Shown: positions 8,552 through 49,516 of the stretch, piece after piece
How the letters are laid out: every line of letters begins with the position of its first letter
How positions within the stretch are numbered: the stretch's first letter is position 1
NCBI GenBank assembly: GCA_016463375.1
Contig: JAEMRK010000004.1
Coordinates: 12,797 to 62,312, forward strand
Length of the DNA stretch: 49,516 nt
Direction: 5' to 3'
From: Parachlamydiales bacterium
Lineage (GTDB): Bacteria > Chlamydiota > Chlamydiia > Chlamydiales > JAEMRK01
Position numbers and translations under genes: made by a program
The notes under the pieces: model-generated
Told to the model about the DNA's origin: nothing
The model's database searches: none
What the model saw: the letters and a program-made list of their open reading frames with translations, nothing else

Positions 8552-9646
8552 TTAGGTTAATAATTTTTTATAAATCGCTTCCATCTGGTCCAAAGTCTTA
8601 TTAAAAGTAAATTTATCCTCTACTAAACTTTTAGCGTTTTTTCCAAATTTAATCCGTTTACTTTTATCAACAGCTAAATCCATTACAGCATTGGCAACTT
8701 CATATGGGCTAGCAGGGCTTACTAAAATACCAGTTTGATTATTAATACAAACTTCTTTTAGCCCGCCTACAGGTGTTGTCACTAACGGCTTTTCTAAATA
8801 AGCTGCTTGCAAGCTTGCTTGGCTGACACCCTCACTTGCTGTACTTAGCAAAACAAAGATGTCAAATGATGCAATTGCTGTGTAAGGCGGTGTTAAATAT
8901 CCTGTAAATATTACAGAATTTTCAAGACCAAGTTCTCGACACTCTTTTTGAAAACGCCCTTCAGATGCTTCGTTACCAACTATCATCCATTTGAGATGTG
9001 TATGATCTTGCAACTTCTTTGCAGCCTGCAAAAAATCTGAAATTCCTTTCCAGCTGCGTAGCACGCAAGCTGTTCCAATTAAGCAATCATCATCTTTAAT
9101 GCCCCATTGATCGCGGAATTTTTTCACATCTTCTTGAGACACTTGTAATACTGATGGATCAACACCTGTCGGTATTGAGCAACATCTATTTTCAGTTAAA
9201 TCAGCTTGTAGACATATCGTATCAGCAGTTTCTTGACATGTCGTGACAACTTGATCGGCCAAGTGATTATAAACAATTTTGGAATTAAGGCCTGTGCGTA
9301 TATTTGAAGAGATATGCCTTGTTCGAATCACACGAGCTCCAGAAACTCTTGCTGCAATACCAGCAAGCCAAGCATCTTTGGATGAATGAGTATTCACAAT
9401 GTGATATTGCTCTTTTTTAAATAAACGAGATAGCTGCATGATGTTTTTTATTCTCGAACCTTTAAAAGGTATTTCGTGAACTACAAATCCTTCGGCACGA
9501 GCTTTTTCAATCAGCTTGCCGCCACTAATGACAGCTAACTCTACATCATAACCTCTTAGTCGCATGCCAATTGCTTCTCGCAGCACACGCATCTCTTGAC
9601 CACCCCAACCACTAGATGCTTCAGTATGTAAAATTCTAATTTTCAT
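8552..9646 (-). CDS. GT4 (GT-B fold) glycosyltransferase
   Basis: MKIRILHTEASSGWGGQE, NTHSSKD, RTRH, EGVSQASLQA. Start set at ATG 9646, which overlaps the mutY stop, instead of 9757. Confidence 0.9.
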   Translation of the reverse strand: MKIRILHTEASSGWGGQEMRVLREAIGMRLRGYDVELAVISGGKLIEKARAEGFVVHEIPFKGSRIKNIMQLSRLFKKEQYHIVNTHSSKDAWLAGIAARVSGARVIRTRHISSNIRTGLNSKIVYNHLADQVVTTCQETADTICLQADLTENRCCSIPTGVDPSVLQVSQEDVKKFRDQWGIKDDDCLIGTACVLRSWKGISDFLQAAKKLQDHTHLKWMIVGNEASEGRFQKECRELGLENSVIFTGYLTPPYTAIASFDIFVLLSTASEGVSQASLQAAYLEKPLVTTPVGGLKEVCINNQTGILVSPASPYEVANAVMDLAVDKSKRIKFGKNAKSLVEDKFTFNKTLDQMEAIYKKLLT

Positions 9647-19117: not shown

Positions 19118-21250
19118 ATGTTTCGCTTCGGCATTTTTATATTTCTTTTTTTGATTCAGGCTTTTCAGCTGCACGCTGAAGAGCCTGCGCCCGACCTTGT
19201 CAGAGATTTGTGTATCATTGAATACTGGAATAAAAAATTAAATGATCGTTTACCGGTTTACTATAATACGTCTGGCTATGTTGGATACTACAATATGCCA
19301 TCTGCTCGTATGGCTAAAGATGGTACATTTGCATTTGGGTTTAACTGGGTACCTCCCTACATAAACTGGACAATTGATTTTCAATTGCTAGATCGATTTG
19401 AGGTTTCAGGGGCTTACCGTATTTTCAGAGGAGTGCAAGACGCTAATTTATCACCCCTTGGGTTTGGAGATTATGCTGACAAAGGCATCAATGCTAAAGT
19501 TTGTTTATTAAAACCAGAAGACACCGGTTATACACTTCCAGGGATTTCAATTGGTGCAGACGATTTCTTAGGTAGTCAGATGTTTGCTTCAAGATATGTG
19601 GTCTTTACAAAAGTTTACCCCGATGCAAACCTAGAGTGGTCTTTAGGATGGTGTTGGGGGCGTATGCGACATTTATTTGGAGCCTTTGCATGGACTCCTT
19701 GGAGACAATGTTCAAATTCATGGATTAATGGACTAACTCTTTGTGCAGAGTATGATAACACAGACTACGAGGATCCTAATATAGAGCCTCACCCCAAAGG
19801 TCGAATAGTCCATAGTCGCATTAATGCAGGTTTAAAATATCATTTTTTACGTTATCTTGATCTATCTGTAAGTAGTTTAAGAGGTGTTACCACAGCTTCT
19901 AGCTTAGCTTTTACATATCCTATTGGATCATCTAAAGGTTTAATCGCAAAAGTTGATGATCCTCTATATCACAAAAGGCCCGTCAATCGCGAACCTATTT
20001 CACAAAATCGCCCTGAACTTGATCTTTGCAACGACATAGCTTATGCGCTAAAAGAACAGGGATTCACCTTGTTAGAAGCCTCAATTGAATTTGATGAAGA
20101 AAGTCAACGCATCATTAGATTAAAAGTTTCAAATGATCAATGGCGCTATGAGCGCATACTGCATAAAAGATTATCATGGGTGTTAGCAACACTTATTCCT
20201 ACAAATGTTGATAAAATTGTTGTCGATTTAATTTGCCAAGGGCTTCCTTGCCAAGAATACAAATTTAGAAGAGAAGATTTGATTGCTTTTTCTAAGGGAT
20301 GCATTGGCTCAATGGAGCTTGATGTATTATCAGCAATGAGCGAAGTGACCTGTAACCCATGCTCTCAAGAATTGTTTTCCTCGAAACAAAAACTCATTAA
20401 CTGGGGAATTAATCCCCGTATTAGAACTTTTTTTGGTAGTGCCAAAGGTAAATTTAAATATTCTGTAGGAACTTCTTTAGATGCTCATGGATTTGTTTTT
20501 GGCGATATTTTTTATAAGTTCCAGGTTGGTTATACAGTTTTTTCAAGTATGAGTGATGTTAGTGATATGGATAAGCTCAATCCATCTCAAATACTTAACG
20601 TACATAGCGACTGGATTAACTATCATAGACCCTACCATTTTACTTTTGAGCATGCCTACATGCAAAAAGCCTGGAACTTGACAAAAGGCTTTTTTGGACG
20701 TTTAGGAGGCGGTTTTTTTGAATCAGCCTATGCAGGCAGTGTTGCAGAAGTACTTTATTATCCAGTTAACTCTCCATGGGCTTTTGGAGCAGAATACGCT
20801 CTACTTAAAAAGCGAAGTTACAGTGGTTTTGGATTTCAAAATACAATAAGAATATTGGATGGTTATACACCAACATATGTGCCTTATAACTATTTATCAC
20901 AGTATTTTTTTGATATCTATTATGATTTTTCTCTATGCAATGTTGAGCTCAAATTAAGTATAGGTCAATTTCTTGCTCGCGACAAAGGGGCTCGCATTGA
21001 AATGACCCGCTATTTTAAAAATGGCCTAAGAATACTTGTTTGGTACACACTTACTAATGGCCACGACTACGTTAATGGCTCCGTATATTATGACAAGGGA
21101 ATAGGATTTTCTGTTCCGCTAGATTTTTTCATGAAAAAATCTAGCACTAAACGTTTAGGATATAGCATGTCTGCATGGTTAAGAGATGTTGGTTTTAGAT
21201 CGGGAACAGGTAATCGTTTATTTCAAATTGTTAATGAAGAACGACGCTAA
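19118..21250 (+). CDS. YjbH/GfcD-family outer-membrane beta-barrel protein (exopolysaccharide-associated)
   Basis: Signal peptide, GY.NMPSARM, DKGINAK..L, GQFLARDKG.R....R.F.NG, DKGIGFSVPLD. Confidence 0.82.
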   Translation: MFRFGIFIFLFLIQAFQLHAEEPAPDLVRDLCIIEYWNKKLNDRLPVYYNTSGYVGYYNMPSARMAKDGTFAFGFNWVPPYINWTIDFQLLDRFEVSGAYRIFRGVQDANLSPLGFGDYADKGINAKVCLLKPEDTGYTLPGISIGADDFLGSQMFASRYVVFTKVYPDANLEWSLGWCWGRMRHLFGAFAWTPWRQCSNSWINGLTLCAEYDNTDYEDPNIEPHPKGRIVHSRINAGLKYHFLRYLDLSVSSLRGVTTASSLAFTYPIGSSKGLIAKVDDPLYHKRPVNREPISQNRPELDLCNDIAYALKEQGFTLLEASIEFDEESQRIIRLKVSNDQWRYERILHKRLSWVLATLIPTNVDKIVVDLICQGLPCQEYKFRREDLIAFSKGCIGSMELDVLSAMSEVTCNPCSQELFSSKQKLINWGINPRIRTFFGSAKGKFKYSVGTSLDAHGFVFGDIFYKFQVGYTVFSSMSDVSDMDKLNPSQILNVHSDWINYHRPYHFTFEHAYMQKAWNLTKGFFGRLGGGFFESAYAGSVAEVLYYPVNSPWAFGAEYALLKKRSYSGFGFQNTIRILDGYTPTYVPYNYLSQYFFDIYYDFSLCNVELKLSIGQFLARDKGARIEMTRYFKNGLRILVWYTLTNGHDYVNGSVYYDKGIGFSVPLDFFMKKSSTKRLGYSMSAWLRDVGFRSGTGNRLFQIVNEERR

Positions 21251-42851: not shown

Positions 42852-43886
42852 ATGTCTGAACATAAAAAAACAGATCAAAAAAAACTAAAAATTGCATATC
42901 TCGGTGCTGGCACATGGGCTTTTTGTCTTGCGTGTCTATTAGCTGCCAAAGGTCACGACGTGACAATTTGGGTATCAAATCCAAAAATTGCAAAAGCTCT
43001 TAAAGAAACAGGTCAACATCCAAATCTTTTGGGGCACATCCCCGAAGGCAACTTATATTATACTGAAGATATGGCTGAAGCAGTAAAAGGGGCTGATTTA
43101 ATAGCAGAAGGCGTCACATCTGCGGGTATTAGGCCAGTTTTTGAAAAACTTAAAAAAATAAAAAATGCTCCAGATTGTCCAATCGTTTTGACATCTAAGG
43201 GTATTGAACAAAACACTGGGTTATTACTCACTGAAGTTGTGATGGAAGTTTTGGGGATGCCAAGCAGATCACGTATCGGTTGTTTATCCGGTCCAAGTCA
43301 TGCTGAAGAAGTCATCAAAGGGATGCCGACATCAGTTGTTTGTTCAGCTTATGATCACCAAGTAATGGAATTTATTCAAAATGCTTTTGCGACACCTCAT
43401 TTCCGCGTGTACCGCAACGCCGATATTAACGGTGTTGAATTTGGCGGTGCCATGAAAAACATTATTGCTATAGCTTGTGGCATATCAGACGGTCTTGGAT
43501 TTGGAGATAATACAAAAGCTGCGCTCATGACTCGAGGTTTATTTGAGATCATAAAACTTTGTGTGACAAAAGGGTGCCATCCCCAAACTTTAAATGGTCT
43601 TGCTGGCATGGGAGATTTGTGCGTCACATGTTTATCACGATTTAGTCGAAACTATCGGTATGGAGAATTATTAGCCAAAGGTGTCGATCCAGAACTTGCA
43701 AAAGAAACCATAGGTGTTGTCGTTGAAGGTGCCTACACTTGTGTTTCAGCTCTGCAATTAGCAAAAAACGCCAATATTGAATTACCAATTACACAAGCAA
43801 TTTACGACATCATTTACGAAAGAAAAAAACCCAGTGAATGTGTAAAAAATCTACTTAAACGACCGATTAAAGAAGAGTATATCTAA
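42852..43886 (+). CDS. gpsA: NAD(P)H-dependent glycerol-3-phosphate dehydrogenase
   Basis: GAGTW, SKGIE, LSGPSHAEEV, GAMKNIIAIA.G, GMGDL..TC...SRN. Confidence 0.96.
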   Translation: MSEHKKTDQKKLKIAYLGAGTWAFCLACLLAAKGHDVTIWVSNPKIAKALKETGQHPNLLGHIPEGNLYYTEDMAEAVKGADLIAEGVTSAGIRPVFEKLKKIKNAPDCPIVLTSKGIEQNTGLLLTEVVMEVLGMPSRSRIGCLSGPSHAEEVIKGMPTSVVCSAYDHQVMEFIQNAFATPHFRVYRNADINGVEFGGAMKNIIAIACGISDGLGFGDNTKAALMTRGLFEIIKLCVTKGCHPQTLNGLAGMGDLCVTCLSRFSRNYRYGELLAKGVDPELAKETIGVVVEGAYTCVSALQLAKNANIELPITQAIYDIIYERKKPSECVKNLLKRPIKEEYI

Positions 43887-45403
43887 TGCTTAAAGTTGTC
43901 TTGCCAGAAACGATGTCCACTATTGAAAATCAAGCGCAATCAGCTGGATCGGACCCAGCAGTATTTATGGAAAACGCGGGTCTTCATTGCGCCTATTTTT
44001 TAAGAGATTGGCAAAAAGACCATGAAAATGTGAAGACATTTCATGTTCTTTTGGGTAAAGGCAACAACGCAGGCGATGCTTTAGTTTGCGCCCTACACTT
44101 AAAAAAAATGGGATTTACAATTAAAGCTTACGCTCTTTATGAATTTGATGAATGCTCTGAACTTTGTCAAAATCACTGGAAGTCTTTTAAAGAATCCGGT
44201 GGAGAAATACTAAAAATTAGATCCAAAGCAGATTTAAATTTTTCATATGATGGTGCCATCATCGACGGTATATTTGGAACAGGCTTTACCAATAATGTCA
44301 CCGGGCTATCACTTGAAGCAATTATTGTGGCCAATTCTTGTAATTTGCCAATAATATCGATCGATATACCCTCTGGATTAAACGGCTCTAATGGTGAGCC
44401 ATCACCAATTGCTATAAGAGCCGATGCAACCCTTAGTCTTGGAATGGCAAAACTTGGCTATTTTATTGGCAGCGGTTGGAACCATGTTGGTAAAATTGTT
44501 CACATAGATTTTGGTCTTCCACAAGATATTATCAATAAAGAAGATGGCATGTTGCACATGGTTGAAGAACATTATGCAGCGCAACTACTTCCTAGTATTC
44601 AACGCAATCGTCACAAATACCAAGCAGGTTATGTACTAGGTGTTGCTGGTTCTCAAAATATGCCAGGTGCTGGCGGATTATCAAGCATGGCTGCTTTAAA
44701 GGGCGGCGCTGGAATGGTTCGTCTGGGTTTTTTTAAAGAGCACAAAAATTTACTGTCACATTTGGCTTGGGAAATAATTCCAGAGCCCATTGAACATGCT
44801 GCCGATCTTGCAAATCTCATGCAAAAAGTCACAAGTTTTTATTGCGGCCCAGGAATTGGACGAGGTGAAAAAGAAAAAGTTTTAGTAAATCAACTCCTTT
44901 CAAAAATTAAGTCTGCGTATGTTTTAGATGCCGATGCACTCTATTTTGTATCTCAAGACGACACTTTAGTTTTACCACCTCTTGGCGTGCTGACACCCCA
45001 CACTGGAGAAATGTCACAGCTTTTAGATATTAAATTAGGTAAAGACCCTTTAAACTGGCCATTTCTAAGAGCAGTTGACCAGTATGCTGCAGAAAAAAAT
45101 GTCACTGTTGTTTTAAAGGGTGCGCCATCATTTGTTTTCCATCCTAATAAAACACCTGTAGTTATACCAACTGGAGATCCTGGCATGGCGACCGCTGGAT
45201 CTGGAGATGTTTTAACGGGCCTTATTGCAAGCTTACTTGCACAAAATTTAACTCCTCATGATGCAGCTATACTTGGTGCTTATATTCATGGATTGGCCGG
45301 CATGCATGCCGCCAAAATCAAGACATCTTATAGCATGACTGCTAAAGATATTTTAGAATCAATTTCATGCGCCTTTAAAACTCTTTTAAAATCATCGACT
45401 TGA
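43886..45403 (+). CDS. nnr: Bifunctional NAD(P)HX epimerase/dehydratase (YjeF)
   Basis: MENAG, GKGNNAGD, DGIFGTG, DIPSG, HK...G, GPGIG, DADAL, TPH.GE, MATAGSGDVLTG. Confidence 0.94.
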   Translation: MLKVVLPETMSTIENQAQSAGSDPAVFMENAGLHCAYFLRDWQKDHENVKTFHVLLGKGNNAGDALVCALHLKKMGFTIKAYALYEFDECSELCQNHWKSFKESGGEILKIRSKADLNFSYDGAIIDGIFGTGFTNNVTGLSLEAIIVANSCNLPIISIDIPSGLNGSNGEPSPIAIRADATLSLGMAKLGYFIGSGWNHVGKIVHIDFGLPQDIINKEDGMLHMVEEHYAAQLLPSIQRNRHKYQAGYVLGVAGSQNMPGAGGLSSMAALKGGAGMVRLGFFKEHKNLLSHLAWEIIPEPIEHAADLANLMQKVTSFYCGPGIGRGEKEKVLVNQLLSKIKSAYVLDADALYFVSQDDTLVLPPLGVLTPHTGEMSQLLDIKLGKDPLNWPFLRAVDQYAAEKNVTVVLKGAPSFVFHPNKTPVVIPTGDPGMATAGSGDVLTGLIASLLAQNLTPHDAAILGAYIHGLAGMHAAKIKTSYSMTAKDILESISCAFKTLLKSST

Positions 45404-45454: not shown

Positions 45455-45970
45455 ATGACGGACCGACCATTGGAATGCACTGAATGTAAGAGACCTGTAG
45501 CTGTTTTTTACACGGAAGTTGTTAAAAACTCTGCAACTAGAAGTTGTATGTGTAATGAATGCCCAGTCCTACAACGCCTCATTCATGGCTCAAAAAAATC
45601 AGATATCATTAATGAAAATTCAAATGTTATCACAGGTCTTTGTTGTGGGCATTGTGGTACATCTCTTGAAGCAATTCGCACAGGAAATAATTTAGGTTGT
45701 AGTGAATGTTATGAAATATTTGGAGATCAGCTTGTCAAGGAACTCGTCATTTCTAAAAAATTGTCTGCTAAAACAATTGCTAATTTAAAAAAGTCATCTC
45801 CAATACATATTGGTAAGGCTCCTGGTGAATCAAATGAGATGAACCCTTCGATGAAATTAATGGCACTAAATGAAGCTTTAAATGAAACATTATCTCGCGA
45901 AGACTATGAACAAGCCGCACTGCTGCGCGATCAAATTAAATCACTAATGGAAAGTTCTGATGGAAAATAG
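45455..45970 (+). CDS. mcsA: McsA (CxxC motifs plus UVR domain)
   Basis: Four CxxC motifs, H.GK.P, C-terminal EDYEQAALLRDQIK. Confidence 0.92.
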   Translation: MTDRPLECTECKRPVAVFYTEVVKNSATRSCMCNECPVLQRLIHGSKKSDIINENSNVITGLCCGHCGTSLEAIRTGNNLGCSECYEIFGDQLVKELVISKKLSAKTIANLKKSSPIHIGKAPGESNEMNPSMKLMALNEALNETLSREDYEQAALLRDQIKSLMESSDGK

Positions 45971-47015
45971 TCAAATCACTGCGTTTCTATTGGAAAATCA
46001 TCCATGGGCTCAATCTTCTAATCCCATTTGGCTTGCTACCACATACCGTTTACACAGAAATCTTTCTAAATATCATTTTCCTGCAAAACTTGATGCAGCA
46101 ACGCAGCAACAAGTTATGCAATTTATATTAGCTGCAACTAAAAGTTACACTACCCTTTACCTAAAAGCTGAAGACTTATCACCATTAAATAAACAATTAC
46201 TCTATGAACATTTTTTAGCAGCTCAAGCTTTTCAACAGTCCCAGACAGGAGAGGGTTTTGCCATCGATGAAAAAGGAGAATTATTTTTTTTATTCAATGC
46301 ACAAGATCATCTTCAAATTCAACTGAACGACGCATCTAATGAAATCGAAAAAGGGTGGAATCGCTTATCGAGAATAGATACAGATTTAAGCAAAGTGCTG
46401 CATTTTGCATTTAGTCCCCGATTTGGGTATCTGACTGCAAATCCAGATCAATGCGGCACCGCATTAATTACGTCGCTATATTTGCATGTTCCAGCTTTGA
46501 TACACACTGATCTAATCAATGAAACTTTAAATAAATACAGTGATGATCGAGTCATGGTTTCAAGCCTTCAAGGAAGTGCAACTGACCTTATTGGAGATAT
46601 TGTCACTCTACAAAATCATTATAAACTTGGAATATCTGAAGAAGAGATCATTAGTTCACTTAGAACTTTTGGCACTAAACTTGTTAATGATGAAACAAGT
46701 GCCCGTCAAAAAATTAAAAAAGATAATTCAGCTTTGATTAAAAACAAAGTCAGTCGAGCTTATGGTCTTGTAAAACACTCTTATGAGCTAGATACTGCAG
46801 AGTGTCTCAGTGCTATCAGCCTATGTAAATTAGGTGTAGATCTAGAATGGATTAAAGGGGTTAGTCAAAAAGATCTCAATCACCTCCTTTTTAATTGTCA
46901 ACGAGCTCACCTGCTAGCTCAGCTAAAGAAAGAAGATCTATCTCAACAAGAATTACTCGTTCAAAGAGCTCAGTTTATTCATGACCATTTCAATTCAAGT
47001 AGTTTAGCAATTTAA
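45960..47015 (+). CDS. mcsB: McsB/ATP:guanido phosphotransferase-family protein (divergent)
   Basis: RL.RNL..Y.FP, L.EH, DHL.IQ, FAF...FGYLT, GT.L....LHVPAL, N...LG.SEE, RA near the C-terminus; overlaps mcsA. Confidence 0.88.
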   Translation: MENSQITAFLLENHPWAQSSNPIWLATTYRLHRNLSKYHFPAKLDAATQQQVMQFILAATKSYTTLYLKAEDLSPLNKQLLYEHFLAAQAFQQSQTGEGFAIDEKGELFFLFNAQDHLQIQLNDASNEIEKGWNRLSRIDTDLSKVLHFAFSPRFGYLTANPDQCGTALITSLYLHVPALIHTDLINETLNKYSDDRVMVSSLQGSATDLIGDIVTLQNHYKLGISEEEIISSLRTFGTKLVNDETSARQKIKKDNSALIKNKVSRAYGLVKHSYELDTAECLSAISLCKLGVDLEWIKGVSQKDLNHLLFNCQRAHLLAQLKKEDLSQQELLVQRAQFIHDHFNSSSLAI

Positions 47016-47030
47016 TTTTTTGCGATTATC

Positions 47031-47924
47031 TTACATAAAAGGAATATCTTCAAAATGGAATTTTATTTTGTCGAAAAAATATGAGTAATAAAAAAGCTCA
47101 ATCCTAAAACTTACCTCTTCAATTGTACTATCTTTTAATTCTTTGAAGTAATTTTTAGTTTTCTTCAGAAAAAACTGAATATCATGTTCATCTTCAAAAT
47201 ATATTCCATCTTTTGTAAAACTGTCTGTTTCACGACCATCGTCATTAATTATACCAGATGCATAACCCTTATGAAGAAAAAGTAAGTGCAATCCGATTAA
47301 ATCTAAATCTTTTAAATCTAGTAAATTTGCAAAAGATTTTTGGTAATAATTTTGATAAATAGGACTAGTGTAAGTTAAACCAAATCCATTCCATTCAAAG
47401 CGATTCCATGCATAATTTTCGTGATAAAGTTTTGGTGATGCAACAATCTTTAAAGGAATTTGAGTTGCTTTATGTTTAAAATTTAATACCACAAAACCTA
47501 AATTTTCGTGTGTATAACCCCAACCGATATCTGACTTGAATTTTTGGATTTTACCTAAATAATCAAACTTTAAAAAACTTTCAGCTCCTCCAAGATTTTT
47601 TACAACCGTATCATAAAATGGTCCTGGAAAAGCAAAACCAAGCTCGATACTTAATTTATCTACGTTAACAAAGTTTTCCTTAGAAAAAATTTTCTCAAAA
47701 GGAAAGCTACTTTTTAACTCTTTAGTTCTCGAATACAATGATTTTAAAAATAACCGCCATAACCTGTTATCATTGACAACAATCGAAAACTTTTTACATA
47801 GATGCGCTAATCTTTTAGACTCAATTGGAAGCAGAAAACTGAAGACCTCAATTAATATCTCTTTTGGAAATTCTGACAATGTATAAGTCTTTAAAGAGCA
47901 GTTACAATTTGCTACACCATTCAT
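47031..47924 (-). CDS. F-box domain protein (candidate secreted effector)
   Basis: LSEFPKEILIEVFSFL...KRLAHLCKKF..VVND..LWR at the N-terminus. Confidence 0.85.
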   Translation of the reverse strand: MNGVANCNCSLKTYTLSEFPKEILIEVFSFLLPIESKRLAHLCKKFSIVVNDNRLWRLFLKSLYSRTKELKSSFPFEKIFSKENFVNVDKLSIELGFAFPGPFYDTVVKNLGGAESFLKFDYLGKIQKFKSDIGWGYTHENLGFVVLNFKHKATQIPLKIVASPKLYHENYAWNRFEWNGFGLTYTSPIYQNYYQKSFANLLDLKDLDLIGLHLLFLHKGYASGIINDDGRETDSFTKDGIYFEDEHDIQFFLKKTKNYFKELKDSTIEEVSFRIELFYYSYFFDKIKFHFEDIPFM

Positions 47925-48101
47925 AAAAAACGCATTATTATTTTGTCTTAGTCAAGGCTATTAAATTTTCTCTCACTACTTAAGAATAATTTTATTAGTT
48001 AAGTAGTAAGTTTGAGACCAATCTCATTTTTTTAAAAAATTTGTTTATTTTATTTTCAAAAAATTCTACAAAAGCAAAGTTTTTATTAAACTTTCTGGTC
48101 A

Positions 48102-48947
48102 ATGCACAGCGTTAAATTTGTTTTTCTGTCACTTCTGTTTTCTTGTACGCTTTTTTCTTGTACCGAAAAAAATACTAGTGAACTCATTCCTTTGAATTAC
48201 TCTACATTAGAACTTAAACATGTTTTTGGAAAAGGTATAGGCTATTCTTGCGGTTATACGTCTTTAGTCAATACAAATTATGTTATAAAAAGCTTAAATA
48301 CTTACATTGTAGATTTAAGAAGTCATGTTTTTGATGATGATTCTACAGCTTTCAATGTAGGATTAGCATACAGACATTTTTTTCCAACCAGTGAAATCGA
48401 AATAGGCTTAAACACCTATTTTGATGGACTTCGTCCAGCTGACAGTGGTTTTATTGGGCAAGTTGGTCTAGGGTTCGAATTTTTTCACCCTTTATCAAAT
48501 GTCAATCTCAATATTTACTTACCAACTAAAGATGAAGTAAAAACTTTTGACATCTCGTACGATAACTATTTTGGATTTTTTTGGATTTACCATGAGCATA
48601 CAAATATAAGCTTCAAATGTTTTGATGTAGATGCTTGTTTTTACAGGCAGAATTTCAAATATGCAACTCTCACAACGTCTGCAGGTTTTTATTATATATA
48701 TAACCGAGTAGATGAACCGACATGGGGATCTCAATATAATTCCACATTAAAGTTTTATAAATGGGCAACGTTATCTCTAATGTTCACGAATGATAATATT
48801 TTTGATTCACGCTTCCAAGTTCAAATTAGTTTTGAAATTCCATTATACACGCCTAATAAACGAAAAAACCGTTTAGATATTGAACCAGTGCAACGTCACG
48901 AAATTCTCGCAATACAAAACCATCCATTCTGGGATTGGAGTTACTAG
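48102..48947 (+). CDS. Inverse-autotransporter beta-domain protein without passenger
   Basis: Possible lipobox LFSC; DLR.H.FDD...FNVGL.YR, G.N.YFD, QVGLG.E, N.NIYLP, D..F; terminal PV.R.EI motif followed by only ~14 aa. Confidence 0.75.
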   Translation: MHSVKFVFLSLLFSCTLFSCTEKNTSELIPLNYSTLELKHVFGKGIGYSCGYTSLVNTNYVIKSLNTYIVDLRSHVFDDDSTAFNVGLAYRHFFPTSEIEIGLNTYFDGLRPADSGFIGQVGLGFEFFHPLSNVNLNIYLPTKDEVKTFDISYDNYFGFFWIYHEHTNISFKCFDVDACFYRQNFKYATLTTSAGFYYIYNRVDEPTWGSQYNSTLKFYKWATLSLMFTNDNIFDSRFQVQISFEIPLYTPNKRKNRLDIEPVQRHEILAIQNHPFWDWSY

Positions 48948-48967
48948 CACTTTGGAGATTATTCTTT

Positions 48968-49516
48968 ATGAAAATTTACAAACAACTACCTGTATATTGT
49001 CTTGCATGCCTTTCATTACTATTTATAAGTGCTCAACATAAATGTAAATGGCCTCCACCTCTGCAAGGTCCTCCAGGTGAAAAAGGTGACCCTGGAGAAC
49101 CAGGCCCTAAAGGTGAAGATGGTGCTATGGGACCACAAGGACCTAAGGGCGACACTGGTGATATAGGGCCACAGGGCCCACAGGGTCCCCAAGGTTTACA
49201 AGGCCCTCAAGGTCCCTCTAACGGAATAGTTGGCCCGCAAGGTGTTAAAGGTGATACTGGTTTACAAGGTATCCAAGGCCCAATCGGTTTAACTGGCGCC
49301 TCTGGCCCTCAAGGTATTCAGGGACTAAAAGGAGATACAGGTGATACTGGACCCCAAGGATTGATGGGCCCTTGCGGAGCTAATGGCCCATCGGGTCCAA
49401 TTGGTTTAACTGGTCCTATTGGTTCGCAAGGTCCTCAAGGAGCTGTAGGACCAATTGGTTTAACAGGTTCTATGGGTCCTCAAGGGTTAACAGGTCCAGC
49501 CGGGCCTACAGGTTCT
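48968..49516 (+). CDS. Collagen-like protein (Gly-X-Y repeats), 3' end beyond window
   Basis: Not in the ORF track. GGAG RBS, ATG 48968, signal-like [22 protein letters not shown], then 17 G-X-Y triplets, one extra Asn, and 32 more triplets to the window edge. Confidence 0.93.

Follow-up and report, generated by a model that had tools for sequence, protein, structure and literature searches.

The window considered here, a stretch of 49,516 nucleotides (nt) from a Parachlamydiales bacterium (GenBank assembly GCA_016463375.1, contig JAEMRK010000004.1), ends with two closely spaced genes on the same strand, the first encoding a passenger-less outer-membrane barrel of the inverse-autotransporter (type Ve) family and the second, of which the 5' part is present, a collagen-like protein (Table 1). 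An original prediction made from the sequence letters had proposed that the two constitute a split type V secretion or display system in which the barrel exports or anchors the collagen in trans. The arrangement on which this proposal was built has stood up to closer analysis: the barrel gene stops 13 residues (predicted were about 14) after the PVQRHEI motif, and the gene that begins 20 nt further on has a ribosome-binding site (GGAG), a signal-like peptide and 49 Gly-X-Y triplets of its own, the triplets being counted by script in runs of three or more.

Table 1. Elements of the barrel-collagen locus with their coordinates in the window
Feature	Position	Strand	Basis
Barrel gene, 281-residue passenger-less inverse-autotransporter (type Ve) outer-membrane barrel	48102-48947	+	Open reading frame (ORF); family profile; AlphaFold2 model
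Barrel signal peptide, residues 1-20, with two LFSC lipobox-like motifs	48102-48161	+	Sequence; modelled helix of residues 2-17, outside the barrel
Beta-barrel proper, residues 31-249	48192-48848	+	Model strands; 12-stranded barrels all align to about 31-248
PVQRHEI linker motif, residues 262-268 (R265 nearly invariant in the family)	48885-48905	+	Alignment, structure match
13-residue aromatic C-terminal tail ending W-D-W-S-Y	48906-48944	+	Matches the family end C-W-x-x-N-[FYW], minus Cys
Barrel stop codon TAG	48945-48947	+	Sequence
20-nt spacer with GGAG at 48954-48957, 10 nt ahead of the ATG	48948-48967	+	Sequence
Collagen-like gene, 5' part, 183 codons, ATG at 48968, open to the window end	48968-49516	+	Pfam Collagen, E 7e-25
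Signal peptide of the collagen protein, residues 1-22 (...ISA)	48968-49033	+	Aligned with 21 partner proteins; cleavage site inferred
Short mature N-terminus, 11 residues, single Cys, Pro-rich lead-in C-x-x-P-x-x-Q before the first GPPG	49034-49066	+	Alignment
Collagen triple-helix repeats, 49 Gly-X-Y triplets, from residue 34 to the contig end	49067-49516	+	Script count, Pfam
Candidate promoter-like site TTGAGA-17-AAAAAT, weak, 9/12 match	48012-48040	+	Located in the AT-rich 177 nt ahead of the barrel gene

No terminator-like site was found on scanning the 20-nt spacer, and the barrel and collagen genes are probably co-transcribed. The promoter-like site upstream of the barrel gene is a candidate only, with 13 such sites present in the region and 9.4 expected. 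The collagen gene is incomplete because its contig ends at the last position of the window (contig C39 of assembly G000, which comprises 125 contigs, 1.88 Mb and 36% G+C); this is a cut made by the assembly and not a biological end. A second contig build, which derives from a freshwater-metagenome DNA run and probably from the same sample, is identical over the stretch and extends only 50 nt past the window end. This run is the sole one listed as containing the stretch, and no RNA run is among the entries.

Membership of the first protein in the type Ve barrels rests on the family profile, its relatives and a structural model, because the direct match of the Pfam model IAT_beta to the window protein stays below the cut-off (16.1 versus 22.3 bits, E 0.0089, residues 79-144 only). 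The suggestion that this model would identify the barrel was therefore borne out for the family and not for the window protein taken alone: 60 of 63 short relatives yield an IAT_beta match at E<=1e-3, with scores of up to 60.6 bits. When an alignment of 63 short homologues with the window protein in first place (A2) was compared as a profile with proteins of solved structure, it matched invasin (4E1T, 2.8e-12) and intimin (4E1S, 1.1e-9) and nothing else at E<=1. The AlphaFold2 model calculated with A2 (predicted local distance difference test, pLDDT, 90.3; predicted template modelling score 0.83) retrieves invasin and intimin first in Foldseek. In VIA-align it superimposes on intimin 4E1S over 215 residues (Z 22.8, root-mean-square deviation 2.8 Å), such that model residues 31-274 correspond to chain residues 208-449, that is to the entire crystallised domain including the linker within the pore. 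In the same procedure the alignment with porins and classical autotransporter barrels stops at about residue 248, and residue 274 is reached with intimin and invasin only. The A2 profile also pairs the PVQRHEI motif with the linker of invasin, albeit weakly (domain 3). At the level of family homology the window protein is an inverse-autotransporter barrel, and according to the model it is 12-stranded with a linker running back through the pore.

The barrel body is rich in alternating aromatic residues and is preceded by a hydrophobic signal peptide. Pfam matched neither a LysM nor another periplasmic domain in the window barrel, where some ten residues separate the signal peptide from the first strand, and it matched no Omp85-type or POTRA domain in the barrel and no TPS domain in the cargo. 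The two LFSC motifs make the barrel a possible lipoprotein; the signal-peptide types of the relatives are mixed. It is known for intimin that the linker threads the pore and that the passenger starts at the cell surface. This topology, together with the alignment up to chain residue 449, leads us to infer that the aromatic tail of the window barrel, to which everything behind the linker motif is reduced, emerges at the surface at the very position where a passenger would start. In the family the tail follows the consensus P-V-x-R-x-E-I-I, about five further residues and a C-terminal C-W-x-x-N-[FYW], an ending shared by 85 of the 150 best family representatives.

The barrel family is large, with 7606 cluster representatives at E<=1e-3 among 1.84 billion proteins, and comprises three architectures, namely the barrel only, a long N-terminal extension followed by a terminal barrel, and a barrel with a beta-helix passenger. 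The protein cluster nearest to the window barrel is mostly of chlamydiotal origin. Barrel homologues were found by sequence search in 17 of 41 genomes of the same order and with a profile in 181 of 400 genomes. Two homologue searches of low sensitivity returned one relative besides the window protein when started from the single barrel and two matches, neither with a collagen, when A2 was used to look for longer proteins. A fused barrel-collagen protein does not occur among the 150 best of the 7606 family representatives, and the link between barrel and collagen is therefore always in trans, as far as sampled. Many family members (among them P0010, P0013, P0023, P0039, P0073, P0098) carry a C-terminal barrel after 400-1100 low-complexity residues; these extensions consist of highly basic helical or acidic repeats, often lack an obvious N-terminal signal peptide and are puzzling for a barrel of this type. 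The window genome itself encodes a second short IAT_beta protein of 274 residues (C109:20144-20965 on the plus strand, equivalent to L099:2145-2966; 80.7 bits).

The product of the second gene is collagen-like, and the Pfam search advised by the original prediction (Collagen, PF01391) gave 87 bits at E 7e-25. It belongs neither to the Legionella-type Lcl proteins (NCBIfam NF046116, 108 bits versus a cut-off of 500) nor to the streptococcal Scl proteins (NF038329 and NF038330, 86 versus 325 and 72 versus 400 bits) as judged by these cut-offs, the repeats alone being aligned in each case. In an alignment of 21 partner proteins the N-terminus in front of the helix follows the consensus C-x-x-P-x-Q-G-P-P-G-P with a conserved cysteine located three to eight residues ahead of the helix. 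Ten complete partners encoded next to related barrels were scanned; Collagen was detected in eight of them and BclA_C in six (E 5.5e-8 to 9e-4, all below the cut-off), and an eleventh partner has the same Collagen/BclA_C pattern. A Pfam scan of the ten identified no barrel or anchor domain, and the expectation that the collagen lacks a barrel or anchor of its own was thus supported, the relatives' partners consisting of collagen repeats and a BclA_C/C1q-type head only. A profile of 23 C-terminal domains (A4) retrieved adiponectin (3e-13) and BclA (1WCK, 2e-12) and, furthermore, ExsF/BxpB, cerebellin and C1q. The AlphaFold2 model of the head (pLDDT 85.5) is similar to F-BclA (9H38, template modelling score 0.84 when normalized by the target and 0.70 by the model) and also resembles heads of the C1q family and BclA (1WCK). 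With the head profile, 150 of the 400 genomes were positive. Two deviating forms were observed among the collagens: a partner in L018 (G015:C8, 6966-8690) has an N-terminal region of 376 residues with weak RHS-repeat/DUF6531 signals ahead of a short collagen stalk and a BclA_C-like head, and in the collagens of family code f3 (e.g. L115, L117, L123, L130, L131, L141, L146, L158) the helix opens with the basic triplets C-K-R-G-P-K-G or G-P-R-G-H-R-G.

The missing 3' end of the window gene has most probably been located. The genome has a single BclA_C-like ORF, which occupies the end of contig C91 (minus strand, 8864-9310, equivalent to L098:3865-4311), starts within Gly-X-Y repeats, scores 58.4 bits with BclA_C (cut-off 38) and contains no anchor domain. 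A tblastn search of the genome with the collagen did not reveal a second contig with Gly-X-Y repeats, and the C91 head was found only with the head profile. Since the end of C39 carries the sole collagen locus and the end of C91 the sole BclA_C locus, the two are most probably the halves of one gene. Provided that C91 is its end, the fibre protein would lack a YadA-type anchor (type Vc). The next gene on C91 (7506-8738, plus strand) is convergent and encodes a FadL/TodX-like outer-membrane protein (27 bits, just below the cut-off).

The pair is not confined to the window. Short barrels (open frames of up to about 450 residues) were drawn from the search of the 41 genomes and from 150 listed matches of the profile search in 400 genomes, with 249 other matches outside this sample; 20 regions around long forms, with a passenger of more than 100 residues, were added as a control. 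A script sorted 94 barrel ORFs into 64 short forms including the window protein, 25 long forms and five truncated ones, which were set aside. A collagen gene lies directly downstream on the same strand in 26 of the 64 short forms, only directly upstream in three and elsewhere within 3.5 kb in nine, whereas no long form has a collagen gene directly downstream or upstream and a single one has it within 3.5 kb. The downstream collagen ORF starts between -59 and +261 nt from the barrel, and 26 of the 29 adjacent cases share this same order and strand of the two genes. Fisher's exact test for 26/64 versus 0/25 yields 4.6e-5, a significance that is overstated as related genomes are not independent of one another. 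On these sequence counts the pairing is not due to chance, and the idea that short inverse-autotransporter barrels recurrently precede collagen genes in related genomes proved correct.

The 26 pairs span nine family codes and 19 genus codes. When linkage to a collagen is mapped onto a maximum-likelihood tree of 88 barrels, at least 13 changes are required, eight of which are forced by well-supported branches, and the pairs therefore do not represent one recent clade. In the same tree 22 of the 25 long forms constitute a single clade. The window barrel has a long branch and an uncertain position next to a clade in which linked barrels are frequent. Judged from this tree, the barrel-collagen link is either old or has been formed repeatedly, with many losses or relocations. 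Five genomes were searched for further collagen genes; the barrel-linked gene is the sole Pfam Collagen locus in four of them (G000, G005, G332, G337) and one of three in the fifth (G285). Tandem arrays of two to four small genes for collagens or C1q-type heads, headed by or enclosing a barrel gene, were noted in L052 (G354:C1), L066 (G333:C46), L070 (G380:C6), L045 (G045:C7) and L027 (G030:C34), and G354 harbors two barrel-collagen units inside 6 kb.

The closest counterpart among characterized systems is ZirT/ZirS. ZirT is described as an outer-membrane barrel similar to intimin and invasin, through which ZirS, a Sec-dependent protein encoded downstream of it, is translocated (Gal-Mor 2008, PMC2270342). 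A model of two-partner secretion through an inverse-autotransporter barrel, with the C-terminal segment moving out of the lumen to make room for the substrate, is outlined by Heinz et al. (PMC4943183), who also report distant inverse-autotransporter groups in Chlamydiae. The two-gene arrangement, which the original prediction did not regard as a textbook system, is consequently not without precedent: passenger-less barrels as well as barrels with co-encoded substrates are already in print (Heinz 2016, PMC4943183; Gal-Mor 2008, PMC2270342). Our literature search, which did not extend to the operon tables S6/S7 of Heinz et al. with their possible chlamydial examples, returned no publication that links collagen-like proteins with inverse autotransporters, save one review that mentions both separately, and none that describes collagen-like proteins of chlamydiae. 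It is thus not the principle that is new here but the cargo, a presumably trimeric collagen of the BclA/C1q type, the extreme C-terminal reduction of the barrel and the occurrence in the Chlamydiota. ZirT and the window barrel share the intimin/invasin-type barrel with little or no passenger and a downstream, co-oriented, Sec-dependent partner that has no barrel of its own. The window partner is, however, presumably an obligate trimer with a collagen stalk and most probably a C1q/BclA_C head instead of an Ig-like protein related to the C-terminal domain of the barrel, the tail of the barrel is reduced to 13 residues, and the lineage is Chlamydiota as compared to Enterobacteria.

Further comparisons delimit the system on other sides. 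Intimin and invasin (PDB 4E1S, 4E1T) have the same fold with the linker in the pore (Z 22-23), profile-level homology and the P-V-x-R-x-E-I linker motif in common with the window barrel, which differs from both by the absence of a C-terminal Ig/lectin passenger and of a LysM or other periplasmic domain and by its IAT_beta score below the cut-off. BclA and F-BclA of Bacillus, which form the exosporium nap and the tip fibrillum of endospore appendages, combine a short N-terminus with a collagen stalk of variable length and a trimeric C1q/TNF-like head, as the window protein would with its probable head on C91. In contrast to these, the window protein has a classical Sec signal peptide and belongs to a Gram-negative organism, where an outer-membrane barrel is the neighbour and neither an exosporium nor a basal partner of the ExsFA/BxpB type is present. 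Type Vb two-partner secretion (TpsB/TpsA, e.g. FhaC/FHA) resembles the pair in that the gene for an outer-membrane barrel lies beside that for a Sec-exported fibre; the window barrel is nevertheless of the 12-stranded inverse-autotransporter type and not of the 16-stranded Omp85 type, POTRA domains and, in the cargo, a TPS domain are lacking, and the barrel gene comes first. Lcl of Legionella is comparable as a surface or secreted protein with collagen repeats from an amoeba-associated intracellular bacterium, and the repeats can be aligned. Its terminal domains differ and the score remains far below the family cut-off; we know of no barrel partner for Lcl.

It is established what the two proteins are and how their genes are ordered, and also that the pair recurs and is confined to barrels without a passenger; that the collagen is exported through the barrel or tethered to it is put forward by analogy. 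We consider it somewhat more probable than its negation that the pair is a ZirT/ZirS-like two-partner module of type Ve, in which the barrel would serve as the dedicated outer-membrane partner of the collagen and export a BclA-like fibre, tether it, or both. Gene 1 would provide a 12-stranded intimin/invasin-type barrel that has kept the in-pore linker and exposes a 13-residue aromatic tail at the passenger position, and gene 2 a Sec-exported BclA-like protein with a short cysteine-containing N-terminus, a stalk of more than 50 triplets and, most probably, a C1q/BclA_C head. Once the linker is displaced, collagen chains could pass the pore in an unfolded state and trimerize outside, nucleated by the head. 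A collagen chain is thin, rich in glycine and unfolded before trimerization and would as such be a plausible substrate for a narrow pore, and trimerization outside, nucleated by the head, could lend directionality to the process. In addition or instead, the N-terminus of the fibre may be held at the surface-exposed tail of the barrel, a position equivalent to that of a passenger in cis. The cell would thereby acquire a nap of collagen hairs resembling the BclA layer of Bacillus spores.

A number of observations weigh against such a module. The pore of a 12-stranded barrel does not admit a collagen trimer whose head is folded, such that export would require unfolded single chains. The substrates of ZirT resemble an Ig-like domain of ZirT itself, and the window barrel has no such domain. 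The cysteine common in the tails of relatives is absent from the window barrel, while its collagen has one, and a disulfide tether is hence inapplicable to this very pair. The second short barrel of the genome, encoded on C109, has neither a collagen neighbour nor the C-W-x-x-N-F tail. Taking all short barrels together, 35 of 64 lack a directly adjoining collagen gene, and for 26 of the 35 there is none even within 3.5 kb. The window also encodes the secretin and ATPase of a type II secretion system (13613-17631), a possible alternative route of export, and kinship among the genomes inflates the significance of all counts. The link is weaker still when approached from the collagen side. For this reverse test, the best of the listed head hits was taken from each of 60 genomes at loci new to the sample and about 1.8 kb upstream were inspected; eight loci, in which the contig ended or the start was not reached, were uninformative. 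No barrel is present within this distance in 48 of the 52 informative cases (four of the 48 have no Gly-X-Y repeats in the part fetched), and the remaining four comprise two short barrels directly upstream on the same strand, one divergent barrel and one located 1.3 kb upstream. At genome level barrels and heads co-occur with an odds ratio of 4.6: heads are present in 102 and absent from 79 of the barrel-positive genomes, and present in 48 and absent from 171 of those without a barrel (n=400). Heads without any barrel match are thus found in 48 of the 400 genomes, and in family code f3 heads occur in 23 of 23 genomes and barrels in two of 23. Collagen-head proteins therefore do not generally need the barrel, and by these counts a general dependence of the chlamydial representatives on it cannot be upheld. 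A partial rescue of the link is provided by a sequence subtype, in that the helix start P-x-Q-GPPG is present in 17 of 26 linked and 12 of 48 unlinked collagens, and that 11 of the 12 unlinked collagens with this start derive from barrel-positive genomes as compared to 11 of the 36 other unlinked ones, a comparison confounded by relatedness.

Several of these points would also be expected if the two genes were independent neighbours, the barrel being porin-like or structural, the collagen leaving the cell by another route such as type II secretion or remaining periplasmic, and the co-regulated envelope genes merely travelling together. The 48 of 52 separately sampled head genes without a barrel nearby, the barrel-free genomes with heads (48 of 400, with f3 at 23/23 for heads and 2/23 for barrels), the 35 of 64 short barrels without a directly adjoining collagen and the size and variety of the family, with 7606 representatives and many long N-terminal extensions, are all in line with this explanation. 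Furthermore, the window contains a type II secretin together with GspE, and Lcl of Legionella exits the cell by type II secretion, which we count in its favor. Independence is possible but rather unlikely, and against it stands that adjacency is confined to passenger-less barrels (26/64 versus 0/25), that order and strand are constant in 26 of 29 adjacent cases, that the linked collagen is the only one in four of five genomes, that the pairs are scattered over deep branches of the barrel tree, and that even the unlinked P-x-Q-GPPG subtype tracks barrel-positive genomes. At the other extreme, the pair could be regarded as the remains of one gene in which barrel and collagen were once fused and which a frameshift, a stop codon or an assembly error has broken in two. 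The collagen frame, which differs from that of the barrel, is indeed open for 11 codons upstream of its ATG and overlaps the barrel end. On the other hand, it has a GGAG, an ATG and a signal peptide of its own, a stop after the tail and a separate signal peptide recur in 25 other pairs, fusions are absent from the 150 best family representatives, and the second contig build (probably from the same sample) shows no indel. That the two ORFs are not one frameshifted gene, a condition of the original prediction, can consequently be maintained, and a broken gene is extremely improbable.

A third alternative overlaps with the tethering part of the proposed module and restricts the barrel to the role of an anchor: the trimer would cross the outer membrane by another machine, for example a type II secretion system, and its N-terminus would then be fixed to the barrel tail, by a disulfide where both have a cysteine. 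Several features fit such an anchor. The tail follows immediately after the residue aligned with intimin 449, the exit point of the passenger; its C-W-x-x-N-[FYW] motif is kept in 85 of the 150 best representatives; a cysteine is conserved at the mature N-terminus of the collagen, three to eight residues before the helix; and the polarity, from barrel C-terminus to passenger N-terminus, is that of a passenger in cis. Disulfide cross-linked outer-membrane complexes are established for Chlamydia. The presence of cysteine is concordant in 19 of 25 pairs (13 with both, six with neither, four in the tail only and two in the partner only), a covariation that comprises only three independent contrasts and is a lead, not evidence. 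The window pair itself is discordant, having a cysteine in the collagen and none in the tail, and the same tail is kept in barrels without a neighbouring collagen. Taken together, we regard a pure anchor as doubtful. Even less credit is given to the most explicit version of the idea, a true split inverse autotransporter, widespread in environmental chlamydiae, whose passenger has become a separate gene since it is an obligate trimer, whose single chains thread the barrel driven by folding of the triple helix outside, whose N-terminal cysteine motif becomes fixed to the C-W-x-x-N-F tail and whose C1q-headed nap engages the protist host; it appears distinctly unlikely.

Additional genes were noted beside the pair and elsewhere in the window. 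Divergently upstream of the barrel gene, a 297-residue protein with an N-terminal F-box or F-box-like domain (33 bits, above the cut-off) is encoded at 47031-47924 on the minus strand and is a candidate host-directed effector. Eukaryote-like proteins such as F-box proteins fit an intracellular life in protists. The type II secretin (790 residues, Secretin and Secretin_N) and the GspE-type ATPase (547 residues) are encoded in this order on the plus strand at 13613-17631 and are followed by an amino-acid permease (17694-19049) and a YjbH-family exopolysaccharide protein (19118-21250). Genes related to type II secretion were also seen near short barrels elsewhere. In L022 (G030:C40, 1586-5983) the barrel is convergent with type II secretion/pseudopilin-like genes whose products have prepilin-type N-termini, and in L067 (G326:C3) it precedes a pseudopilin-like ORF by 274 nt on the same strand, again with a prepilin-type N-terminus. 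Further upstream of the pair in the window, a gene for an McsA-like protein with a UVR motif and a Cys-rich N-terminus overlaps the start of that for an McsB-like ATP:guanido phosphotransferase (45455-47015, plus strand), and a bifunctional NAD(P)H-hydrate epimerase/dehydratase is encoded ahead of the McsA-like gene at 43886-45403.

Frequency makes the pairing a feature of the family, since it is present in 26 of 64 passenger-less barrels from 19 genus codes in a barrel family that numbers thousands. The recurrent pair suggests, on the basis of gene content and order, a two-gene way of placing collagen hairs on the cell surface. If the ZirT/ZirS-like reading is true, the pair would constitute a type V system whose cargo in trans is a trimeric collagen. 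Nature would furthermore have provided a test case for the export, by a monomeric barrel of 12 strands, of substrates that are not its own passenger, a question that dates from ZirT/ZirS. Even without any involvement of the barrel, collagens of the BclA/C1q type are common in Chlamydiota, as they occur in 150 of the 400 genomes searched. Our findings point to collagen hairs with C1q-type heads as a hitherto undescribed structure on the surface of environmental chlamydiae that may bear on the attachment to amoebae or other hosts just as fibres of the BclA type do for spores.

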